From the NCBI RefSeq assembly GCF_057098645.1, contig NZ_CM169472.1: a stretch of 64,000 nucleotides of DNA. The stretch is one strand, 5' to 3'. Made by a program: the position numbers. Below, in pieces: positions 18,001-21,000 of the stretch. The stretch's first letter is position 1. Each line of letters begins with the position of its first letter.

Positions 18001-21000
18001 TTGCGGGAAACAGTGTTTGTTGTCATAACAGATTATCGGGTGAGTTGCGAAAAAGTGATGAAATGATCTTAAAACGGTTAATGATGTGAATACAATGCAT
18101 TTGTGATCTGGATCGCGTTTTCCGTTTCTCTGACGCTGATTCTTTCACGCGTCAGAGAGACGGTAAACATCACGGTTTAATGACGATCAGGAATGTCTGG
18201 CGTTTTGGAGGTTGCGGGTATAGGTGGTCTGACAGGGGAGCGAGGCCTGTTTTTCACCAGGTCTTCATGAGTAACTTTTGGCGGTGTTTCATTTTTTACA
18301 AAAAGTTTGAGGGTCTTGCGCGCCATATGTTTGATAATTTTATCATCACTTAATGATGCTGGCATCAACACGTCATTCAAATCACTTTCATTGGGATTCA
18401 TAAATTGGTGATAGTGTAACAACATATTGGCGAAAAATAAAAACAAGTCCTGAAAATGAGGAGGTTCTTGTTCTGCTAAAAGGGATAAAAAGCAGATGCA
18501 GACTTCGGGTAGTACATGTTTGTTAGAACCTAATGAATCCATCAGGCTTTGCAATAAATCCTCTTTTAATTCGCTGTCCGTTATGTCGAGAATGGCGGTG
18601 ATCAAGTTAGGATCTTTATTGACGAACCATCTGTGAACCTCAGAGTTATTCCATAATCGGGGGAGTATGACAAAATTACCGCGAGAGATAAAATTCAGGA
18701 CAAGCAAATCAAACTGGCGTAAGTAATCTGCAGCGGTATGGTGATCCGGAGGCAGGGGTTCAATATGTGGTGTATGCGCTCTTTTGATGGGAACGCCAGG
18801 GTTGATCATTGGAAATTGTTCAATAAAATCATTCAGAAACAGAAAGAGCACACGCTCGACGCCGGTCTGAAATACGCGCCCCATAGTGACAGGCTTTGGG
18901 TTGGGAGCGCAAAAAATATTAATTTCTCCATCATGGCGGAAATTATCTAAATAAATAGGGCTTAAATTTATTACTACCTGAAATTCAATATTTTCTTTGT
19001 GTCTTCCATTCCTGGCGGGATAAGTGAGTTTAAACTGAACCTTTTCATTGTATAGCGTGTCGTTACCCCGAAAAGAAGTCCTCTGAATATATGATAAGTT
19101 GTCAAGGTTATTAAATATCTTTTTTGTGGCTGAGTTGATGTTTAAAGACGTGCGCCACTCTTCATTACATATTATTGTACTAAGTGCATCAATAAAATCC
19201 TTTAAAACTTCTTTTACCTGCGGTGCAATATTACGTACGGGAAAATCATCAGGAAGAGATATGTAATTGCTGATGCTTACTGGCGTAACCATATTTGCCC
19301 CATATAGTCATAAGTCATCGGAACATCACTATATAGAGCATATTAGCCGCAAGAACTATCAAAAATAGCTCATTGATATCCCTGTCTTGCCGAGTCAGGC
19401 ACATCCAGCAGTTGAATAAATGCCTCGAGCGGACGTGTTTTCGCACCACGACGCCAGACCAGCCAGGTTGTTAACCAACGCCATTGCTCAGCTAACGGCC
19501 ACGCTTCAACCTGGTGATGCCCCGGCATACTTTCCAGCATAGAGCGCGGAATAAGCGCAATGCCTGCTCCTGCGACTACACAGGCCAACATTCCGTGATA
19601 AGACTCCATCTCATGGATAGTTCCCGGAGCGGCACCGTCAGCATGAAACCAGCTCTCGAAGTGGCGACGATACGAACAATTGGCGCGGAAGGCATAAATG
19701 TTACTGCCATTAACCTGACTGGCACGGATTACTGGCGCATGACCTTGTGGCGTGACGATCATCAGCTCCTCGCGGTATACCGGTATCCCGTCAATGGCAG
19801 TATGGTTAATGGGTCCATCAATAAACGCCGCATTAAGTTTTCCCTCCAGCACACCTTCCAGCATAGTGCCGGAAGGGCCGGTGGAAAGTGAAAACTGAAT
19901 TTTGGGATAACGACGGTTGAATTCCGCCAGCGTGGCCGGAATGCGAACTGCTGCAGTGCTTTCCAGCGAACCCAGAGAAAATAAACCTTGCGGCTCATCG
20001 CCAGCGACAACGCTCCGCGCTTCATCCACTAACGCGAGAATTTGTTGGCTATAGCGTAAAAAGTTATGCCCGGCAGGAGATAGACGTAAACGCTGATTCT
20101 CGCGAATAAACAGATCTACCCCCAGTTCTGTTTCCAGCTGGCGTAGACGGGTAGTGAGATTCGACGGCACGCGATGCACTATTGCTGCAGCCTGCGTAAT
20201 GCTGCCAGCTTCGGCAACCGCGTTGAACATCTCCAGTTGGGTCAGATCCATAATATTCTCGATTCGTGAATAAGTGGCTTAATATTATTCATTTTAAAGC
20301 AAGAGTAAATCTGCGTATCTTCATACCATGACTCATAAAGGAGATACCCCGATGACCATTACTCCGGCAACTCATGCAATTTCGATAAATCCTGCCACGG
20401 GTGAACAACTTTCTGTGCTGCCGTGGGCTGGCGCTGATGATATCGAAAACGCACTTCAGCTGGCGGCAGCAGGCTTTCGTGACTGGCGCGAGACAAATAT
20501 AGATTATCGTGCTGAAAAACTGCGTGATATCGGTAAGGCTCTGCGCGCCCGTAGCGAAGAAATGGCGCAAATGATCACCCGCGAAATGGGCAAACCAATC
20601 AACCAGGCGCGCGCTGAAGTGGCGAAATCGGCGAATTTGTGTGACTGGTATGCAGAACATGGTCCGGCAATGCTGAAGGCGGAACCTACGCTGGTGGAAA
20701 ATCAGCAGGCAGTTATTGAGTATCGACCGTTGGGGACGATTCTGGCGATTATGCCGTGGAATTTTCCGTTATGGCAGGTGATGCGTGGCGCTGTTCCCAT
20801 CATTCTTGCAGGTAACGGCTACTTACTTAAACATGCGCCGAATGTGATGGGCTGTGCTCAGCTCATTGCCCAGGTGTTTAAAGATGCGGGAATCCCACAA
20901 GGCGTATATGGCTGGCTGAATGCCGACAATGACGGTGTCACTCAGATGATTAAAGACTCGCGCATTGCTGCTATCACGGTGACCGGAAGTGTTCGTGCTG

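Follow-up and report, generated by a model that had tools for sequence, protein, structure and literature searches.

yneK is a genus-restricted orphan gene of Escherichia, probably acquired within a compact AT-rich segment and now often lost

The gene yneK lies in the 64,000-nucleotide stretch of Escherichia coli DNA analyzed here (contig NZ_CM169472.1 of NCBI RefSeq assembly GCF_057098645.1; referred to below as the window). Our analysis suggests, with a probability that we put at roughly 75%, that yneK is a genuine orphan gene that derives from a compact, AT-rich foreign cassette of ~1.26 kb, acquired on the stem of Escherichia and now often lost. The cassette would have entered within the final codons of ptrR, a short distance upstream of the ydeA promoter, after the split from Salmonella and Citrobacter and before the split between E. 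albertii and E. coli, and it would have brought an open reading frame (ORF) and a 3' stem-loop, with no mobility genes surviving. The gene itself was already known; what this analysis adds is the extent of the cassette, a bracket for its age, the selection regime, the spectrum of losses, and the conserved stem-loop.

The coding sequence was defined by ORF listing and translation as follows.

18177 to 19292, minus strand: yneK coding sequence, an ATG-to-TAA ORF of 371 amino acids

The product of this ORF matches the NCBIfam equivalog family for YneK, NF033404, over residues 1 to 371 of the 371-position model with a score of 811 bits (E = 8.6e-245), well above the curated cutoff of 40 bits, and RefSeq annotates the ORF as yneK, "putative protein YneK," in a source region assigned to E. 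coli. On both grounds, the name given to the gene by an earlier, sequence-only reading of this DNA is correct. The gene order on the minus strand is ptrR (yneJ), yneK, and ydeA, and the locus is bordered by marC and marRAB at one end and by the divergent sad-glsB-yneG-dgcF genes at the other. Strains C325 and O145 RM9872 carry exactly the allele found in the window, and this allele shares 98.6 to 98.8% nucleotide identity and an identical ptrR-yneK-ydeA context with K-12-type strains. It is the same gene as yneK of E. coli K-12 (b1527; UniProt P76150), and the differences, 16 nucleotides relative to the K-12-like allele, are allelic only.

The sequence-only reading had also described a 371-amino-acid ORF richer in AT than the genes that flank it, and this was borne out at each level of base composition. 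The sliding-window GC content is 0.38 to 0.41 over yneK compared to 0.50 to 0.53 on either side, and the GC content of the gene is 39.7%, compared to a mean of 49.1% (standard deviation, 3.7) for the 51 other ORFs in the window (z = -2.5; rank 3 of 52), 51.1% for ydeA, and 53.3% for ptrR. The GC content at third codon positions is 39.2% compared to 50.1% (z = -1.75). The rare codons AGA, AGG, ATA, and CTA make up 4.6% of yneK and 1.6 ± 1.0% of genes elsewhere (z = +3.0, the highest of 45 genes). A cruder pooled synonymous-codon likelihood was uninformative (z = -0.24), and the rare-codon fraction was used in its place; the expected departure from the neighboring genes was seen in GC content and rare-codon load.

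The gene occupies most of a lineage-specific segment, in which it is preceded by a replaced 3' tail of ptrR and a 77-bp spacer and followed by a stem-loop. The features of the locus are as follows.

18129 to 19393: lineage-specific inserted segment, ~1.26 kb, with edges placed to within about ±15 bp
19370 to 19393, minus strand: last ~7 codons and stop codon of ptrR, supplied by the insert
19293 to 19369, minus strand: ptrR-yneK spacer of 77 bp, read directly
18117 to 18168, minus strand: stem-loop (inverted repeat I1) starting 9 nucleotides past the yneK stop codon, with arms of 20 nucleotides and a loop of 12 nucleotides
18027 to 18128, minus strand: upstream and promoter region of ydeA, ancestral and outside the insert, conserved with Salmonella, Citrobacter, and Trabulsiella

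We compared this region across 80 PtrR-anchored syntenic loci taken from species-representative genomes, a set that contains no E. fergusonii locus, and a tblastn search over these enterobacterial loci detected YneK in E. coli and E. albertii only. The segment is missing from Salmonella (Salmonella enterica subsp. diarizonae and arizonae), several Citrobacter, Trabulsiella, and four non-coli Escherichia genomes, in which ptrR and ydeA are separated by only 109 to 250 bp. In these yneK-less taxa, the sequence ceases to match the window ~20 nucleotides before the ptrR stop codon and matches it again from ~45 to 50 nucleotides past the yneK stop codon. Their junctions align collinearly with one another, all with the conserved ydeA promoter region, and invariant blocks upstream of ydeA (for example, ATCACAAA and CGTTTTAAGATC) are present both in this junction alignment and in the yneK-positive loci. 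A step in GC content from 0.40 to 0.55 at ~19393 coincides with the mapped left junction, and the segment as a whole is 60% AT, within the top 6.4% of same-size windows. The flanks are thus contiguous in relatives and the insert is marked by a compositional break, which is the empty-site pattern of a horizontal insert.

The exact left edge is blurred by the end of ptrR. The PtrR tail up to the stop codon reads DSARQGYQ in E. coli and ESTKRHDQ in E. albertii and is different in the yneK-less lineages (11 taxa compared), and tblastn alignments of PtrR end at residue 282 to 286 wherever yneK is absent. We considered the shortened PtrR alignment as a marker of the exact insertion point and rejected it, given that the tail is variable in all taxa, and for the same reason the left boundary is known to ~15 bp only. 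The junction between ptrR and ydeA is also variable in gene content in other genera. In Enterobacter, Klebsiella, Kluyvera, Kosakonia, Raoultella, and others (loci L014 to L087), it holds one or two PhzF-like genes, an Ldh-like dehydrogenase gene, and a GNAT gene, for a total of 1 to 3.4 kb. The GC content of these genes is within 0 to 4 points of their own flanks, so the shift toward AT is specific to Escherichia, and only the Escherichia insert is compositionally foreign.

Some of the 80 loci are filed under names that do not fit their content. The E. coli locus among them is on a contig (SMXE01000224.1) filed as "MAG: Caldithrix sp. CR04bin15," where MAG denotes a metagenome-assembled genome; it encodes PtrR, YneK, YdeA, MarC, and Sad with 98 to 100% identity to E. 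coli, from which we conclude that the Caldithrix assembly is contaminated or misbinned. Two further loci, filed as "Chryseobacterium sp. 18061" (L044) and "uncultured Raoultella" (L020), are Enterobacter/Citrobacter-type ptrR loci under unrelated names.

Searches for relatives of YneK did not lead outside the genus. A search of 5.8 billion clustered proteins returned 22 clusters, every one from Escherichia or Shigella, with the furthest full-length members 84% and 68% identical, and the 48 matches from a profile search of 1.84 billion 50%-identity representatives were fragments, frameshifted reads, or deletion fusions of yneK. No yneK match was found by tblastn in 50,697 phage records, and matches in plasmid records were rejected as mislabeled chromosomes or chromosomal fragments. 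Sequence and profile searches of the PDB with YneK returned nothing below E = 0.7, and zero families of the PADLOC-DB anti-phage defense models matched at E ≤ 10. Pfam DUF1140 was considered as a YneK domain and rejected as below threshold (E = 0.16, 12.9 bits against a cutoff of 25), as were weak matches to the phage protein families PHROG 17954, 24853, and 20711 (E = 0.07 to 0.3). All of these fall at amino acids 40 to 105 and are regarded as compositional noise, given that an E. albertii-type orthologue (P0010) has no such match. An Rfam scan of positions 17500 to 20000 gave only a subthreshold microRNA match, which we took as chance. The gene is therefore a true genus-restricted orphan with no homologue outside Escherichia (Shigella included), and the absence of a recognizable domain noted in the sequence-only reading stands, with no Pfam, PDB, PADLOC, or robust PHROG match. 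In the literature, YneK counts as uncharacterized: it has been listed as lacking a Pfam or KEGG annotation and as confined to E. coli and Shigella, and it appears as an unvalidated candidate from a host-factor screen for CRISPR-associated transposons (PMC12757027).

The substitution pattern shows that yneK is a real, constrained protein-coding gene that evolves fast. Between E. coli and E. albertii, the rate of nonsynonymous substitution (dN) is 0.196 and that of synonymous substitution (dS) is 1.18, for a dN/dS ratio (omega) of 0.166. Omega is 0.147 relative to a divergent lineage known from a human gut metagenome contig (L007), 0.20 to 0.24 within E. coli, and 0.09 within E. albertii. Over the same E. 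coli-E. albertii divergence, neighboring genes have omega values of 0.005 to 0.06 and dN values of 0.006 to 0.05, and the dN of yneK is 4 to 30 times that of ptrR, ydeA, marC, sad, glsB, and marR. The GC content of yneK is 36 to 40% in all three lineages. When substitutions were polarized by parsimony with E. albertii as the outgroup, changes from A or T to G or C numbered 57 and the reverse changes 52 (37 and 31 at third positions), counts that are small and come from a near-saturated outgroup; they gave no measurable amelioration toward 51% GC. The present AT-richness thus seems to be kept at equilibrium and to be more than a vanishing trace of a donor; possible causes are weak selection combined with AT-biased mutation, or selection that favors silencing.

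Within Escherichia, the whole segment is collinear between E. coli and E. albertii, with 75.6% identity, identical junctions, and homologous PtrR tails, which together argue for a single insertion event. Flank identity to E. coli is 94% in a sister lineage of E. coli (L009), ~88% in a clade of three loci (L010 to L012), ~84% in E. albertii, and ~74% in Salmonella, and the E. albertii flanks are equidistant from those of all other Escherichia, which makes E. albertii the genus outgroup here. The gene has diverged between E. coli and E. albertii by no less than its flanks (74% nucleotide identity and a dS of 1.18, compared to 84% and 0.46 to 1.20), and no window adjoining the junctions has an excess of similarity to E. 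albertii that would be a signature of recombination. In the sister lineage L009, the left junction is still of the E. coli type (GATGTGCCTGAC) and the match ends after it, which marks this lineage as a secondary deletion of yneK. The third divergent lineage, L007, has an intact yneK with an allele 84% identical to that of E. coli, next to a ydeA that is 95.5% identical. This distribution is most simply read as acquisition on the Escherichia stem with later losses, of which there are at least two at the species level. Old horizontal acquisition, as proposed in the sequence-only reading, is thus supported by the empty site, the GC step, the common junctions, the flank-like dS, and the Escherichia-only range. 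As a separate observation, the dS between the L007 allele of yneK and E. coli alleles is 0.51 to 0.58, while that of the adjacent ydeA is only 0.20; this 3-fold excess could reflect either a much faster synonymous rate in yneK or a recombined divergent allele.

Losses are also frequent within E. coli. In a survey of 5,426 E. coli genomes, ydeA was retained in 5,416, and full-length yneK was found in 4,262 (78.5%). The alleles mapped onto the window are as follows.

18194 to 19207: 1014-bp deletion allele, with breakpoints mapped by BLAST in a genome that carries it (L002)
18911 to 18916, minus strand: T6 tract, gene nucleotides 377 to 382, a recurrent -1 frameshift site
18292 to 18297, minus strand: A6 tract, gene nucleotides 996 to 1001, a -1 frameshift site with an A deletion in L091
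18446, minus strand: third frameshift site, gene nucleotide 847, with a T deletion in L089 and L090

The contiguous junction of the 1014-bp deletion is present in 1,116 of the 5,426 genomes (20.6%) and is at least 99% identical in 1,042 records; this near-identity over more than 1,000 records shows one deletion event inherited by a large lineage. The deletion leaves nucleotides 1 to 85 and the last 17 nucleotides of the gene, which RefSeq annotates as a partial yneK pseudogene. A larger deletion, which also removes the 5' end of ydeA, was seen in one strain. Among 31 sampled full-length matches, 7 (~23%) are only 1114 to 1115 nucleotides long, and all four shortened copies that we examined are labeled "frameshifted" in RefSeq. 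They represent three independent -1 events, two of them common to more than one strain; the loss of one T from the T6 tract in L088 and L089 leads to a stop at codon 153. The frameshift inactivations are recent, given that omega is not yet elevated in these alleles. Truncated YneK also forms large protein clusters, for example a 258-amino-acid form from Shigella sonnei with 3,818 members, and an E. albertii form (P0017) has an internal deletion. Taken together, yneK is eroding: roughly 40% of sequenced E. coli carry a deletion or a frameshift in it. In laboratory evolution under butanol or isobutanol, deletions spanning yneK-ydeA-marC (marC to yneK, window positions 16146 to 19292) recur and raise tolerance, an effect that has been ascribed to marC (bioRxiv 10.1101/143792; PMC11187965).

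A promoter and terminator scan of the 77-bp spacer found no terminator and no consensus sigma-70 promoter, and a weak GGGG Shine-Dalgarno sequence lies 7 to 10 nucleotides upstream of the yneK ATG. Weak in vitro peaks for NtrC/RpoN and RpoH from genomic systematic evolution of ligands by exponential enrichment fall within the spacer (PMC8743547, PMC5493296). In published transcriptome sequencing data, the base mean was 14 for yneK compared to 222 for sad, and yneK mRNA rose by a log2 value of 2.78 (6.9-fold) in a ptrR deletion strain (PMC9068703), which is consistent with read-through from the ptrR locus. We propose that yneK may lack a promoter of its own, its very low transcription arising mainly from polymerases that start at the autoregulated ptrR promoter and read through. 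Being 60% AT and enriched in H-NS-motif-like sites, the insert would probably be further damped by xenogeneic silencing of the H-NS type. The insert contains six such sites compared to a mean of 2.05, within the top 3.3% of same-size windows, in a scan with the high-affinity H-NS motif. A literature search returned no report of H-NS occupancy or derepression for yneK.

The stem-loop past the yneK stop codon belongs to the insert. It occurs in one copy per genome, is absent from the yneK-less lineages, and is predicted to fold with -30.4 kcal/mol (z = -5.4), a stability that none of 200 shuffled sequences reached. Its core arms, CTCTCTGACG and CGTCAGAGA, do not vary between E. coli and E. albertii, even though yneK itself is only 74% identical. 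The stem-loop is followed by GCGAUCCAG, without a run of T; a scan for intrinsic terminators was negative, and the lack of a U-tract sets the stem-loop apart from canonical terminators of this kind. It may help to form the 3' end, to keep the transcript stable, or to shield the ydeA promoter, and in our model it would end or stabilize the transcript and insulate the ydeA promoter.

YneK is a protein of 42.8 kDa with a calculated isoelectric point of 6.3, and its maximum 19-residue Kyte-Doolittle hydropathy is 1.17, with no transmembrane segment. Secondary structure prediction gave N-terminal helices followed by long beta-hairpins (amino acids ~20 to 130) and a helical C-terminal region (amino acids ~140 to 330) that holds the best-conserved blocks, LFLNDF, FVI, and NLxTxIxDIxDxxLKxxLLQxLMDxL. 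The tail of 37 residues (amino acids 335 to 371) is 24% proline and carries the conserved motif RPRSPVxP...KTP...RH. Structure prediction, proposed as a check in the sequence-only reading, was carried out but gave no usable fold: AlphaFold2 modeled full-length YneK from a 4-sequence alignment with a predicted local distance difference test (pLDDT) score of 44 and a predicted template modeling score of 0.38, and the isolated N-terminal 163 residues were no improvement (pLDDT, 42). These predictions are compatible with a soluble cytoplasmic protein in which N-terminal helices and beta-hairpins would precede a conserved helical C-terminal region and a disordered, proline-rich tail. We suggest that the activity of YneK may be nonessential and useful only in some niches, which would explain constraint over the history of the genus together with frequent deletion and frameshift. 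A bolder proposal, which we consider improbable, is that YneK is the sole known member of a new fold and function confined to Escherichia, one that has no relative among ~15 billion predicted proteins and has been under purifying selection since the origin of the genus, perhaps with a host or niche role, for example as a secreted protein acting through its RPRSPV tail. If that were so, intact and deleted alleles might mark ecologically distinct E. coli lineages, the deletion being fixed in a lineage that makes up 20.6% of genomes.

Several observations weigh against acquisition of yneK as a foreign cassette on the Escherichia stem. The clade L010 to L012, which lies between E. albertii and E. 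coli, has no yneK, no remnant of it, and a Salmonella-like junction, so a clean loss or an allele replacement is required there, and the distribution of yneK inside the genus is patchy as a whole. The dS of yneK is near saturation, which makes the dating rough, and since the polarized substitutions are balanced, AT-richness alone is no proof of foreign origin. We found no donor, integrase, tRNA target, direct repeats, or terminal inverted repeats at the insert, no convincing target-site duplication, and no phage, plasmid, or mobility signature. On the expression side, the rise of yneK mRNA in the ptrR mutant could be an artifact of the promoter of the resistance cassette rather than derepression of an autoregulated promoter. 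The gap in L010 to L012, which include E. whittamii, could also mean that these intermediates never had the gene and that homologous recombination in the flanks carried the cassette from one of the E. albertii and E. coli lineages to the other at a later time; the identical junctions in the two species would fit a single insertion that was later copied. We consider this unlikely, given that yneK is no less diverged than its flanks, that the flanks adjoining the junctions have no excess similarity to E. albertii, and that L009 is a demonstrable secondary deletion while the divergent L007 keeps the gene, which makes repeated loss the observed mode. The balanced substitutions bear on a different alternative, in which AT-richness is the equilibrium of a weakly expressed, weakly selected gene under the universal GC-to-AT mutation bias, or is selected for silencing, and composition says little about origin. 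Consistent with this, the counts are balanced despite a GC content 11 points below that of the flanks, a GC content of 36 to 40% has been held in three lineages at a dS of 0.5 to 1.2, and expression is very low (PMC9068703). However, an equilibrium leaves unexplained a 1.26-kb segment that has no precursor where the outgroup junction measures 109 to 250 bp, its polarization depends on small counts and a near-saturated outgroup, and the other lineage-specific genes at the ptrR-ydeA junction have native GC content. We regard this alternative as possible but tentative, and an equilibrium composition complements a foreign origin and does not replace it.

The remaining alternatives concern what the ORF is. 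Origin de novo from local noncoding DNA, or a spurious or dead ORF, would fit the lack of a homologue anywhere, the very low mRNA level, the frequent pseudogenization, and the low AlphaFold2 confidence, which is common among de novo and orphan proteins. We find this hardly credible. The ancestral ptrR-ydeA spacer is only ~20 to 65 nucleotides and therefore offers no precursor for 1.26 kb, the probability of a stop-free run of 371 codons in DNA of 40% GC, calculated from base composition, is ~4e-11, omega values of 0.15 to 0.24 at all depths indicate long-term purifying selection, and the ORF has kept its length in E. coli and E. albertii although their copies differ at 26% of nucleotides. A host-interaction factor, such as a substrate of a type III secretion system (ETT2 or LEE), is another idea that we judge very unlikely. 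Within Escherichia, such secretion systems are known from two species, E. coli and E. albertii, and these are also the carriers of yneK, whose profile (AT-rich, lineage-restricted, without homologues, and fast-evolving) resembles that of an effector gene. The N-terminus of YneK (MVTPVSISNYISLP) is rich in Ser, Thr, Ile, and Pro and has no acidic residue in its first 14 positions, a composition that is compatible with a type III secretion signal but not diagnostic, and the proline-rich tail would carry eukaryote-like PxSP and PxxPxR motifs. The RPRSPV motif of that tail is conserved from E. coli to E. albertii, but the PxxPxR motif is not, given that its final R is replaced by S in E. albertii. 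Searches of Pfam, the PDB, and PHROG gave no similarity to known effector families, no chaperone or type III secretion genes are adjacent, yneK lies between housekeeping genes with ptrR, ydeA, and the mar genes as neighbors, and the gene is intact in K-12, which has no functional type III secretion system. A pan-genome study reported a weak, nonsignificant association of yneK with adherence to bovine recto-anal cells, which was gone after correction for multiple testing (PMC11540155).

Elsewhere in the window, dgcF (yneF; 23228 to 24646) is an intact ORF for a diguanylate cyclase of 472 amino acids, whereas in a K-12-like genome (L001) it is annotated as an N-terminally truncated pseudogene. 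The most AT-rich stretches of the window (63 to 64% AT), at 58200 to 59700 and 61700 to 62900, cover safA-ydeO and ydeM; they surpass yneK in AT content and contain 9 to 11 H-NS-motif-like sites per 1.26 kb. From 37457 to ~42600, an autotransporter gene with an extended signal peptide of the ESPR type is split into several ORFs, and its equivalent in strain C325 is annotated as frameshifted with an internal stop. Strict collinearity of the window with C325 ends at ~37457, and the fimbrial genes are offset by ~1 kb.

In summary, yneK is among the remaining y-genes of E. coli without a function, a domain, or a usable structure prediction, and its importance is modest: no new biological question is opened unless a function of YneK is found. 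It does provide a clean, textbook case of the life cycle of an acquired orphan gene, and its deleted or intact state could serve as a lineage marker. A close parallel is the concept of bacterial ORFans, or taxonomically restricted genes, which is reportedly due to Daubin and Ochman: yneK is AT-rich, fast-evolving, confined to one genus, without a homologue, weakly expressed, and often lost. It differs from typical ORFans in that YneK, at 371 amino acids, is far longer and lies above the median of the window genes, and in that it has no robust phage link, with only weak PHROG matches and none in the 50,697 phage records. Like H-NS-silenced DNA, it is a 60% AT block in a context of ~51% GC that is enriched in motif-like sites and has very low basal mRNA; however, this block is a single gene and not an island. 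It also shares with genomic islands and integrative elements a discrete insert, sharp compositional edges, and an empty site in relatives, but it has no integrase, no tRNA or tmRNA target, and no direct or terminal inverted repeats, and it comprises one gene in 1.26 kb. Collectively, yneK is a typical, if unusually long and old, example of an acquired, AT-rich, weakly expressed, and fast-evolving accessory gene.

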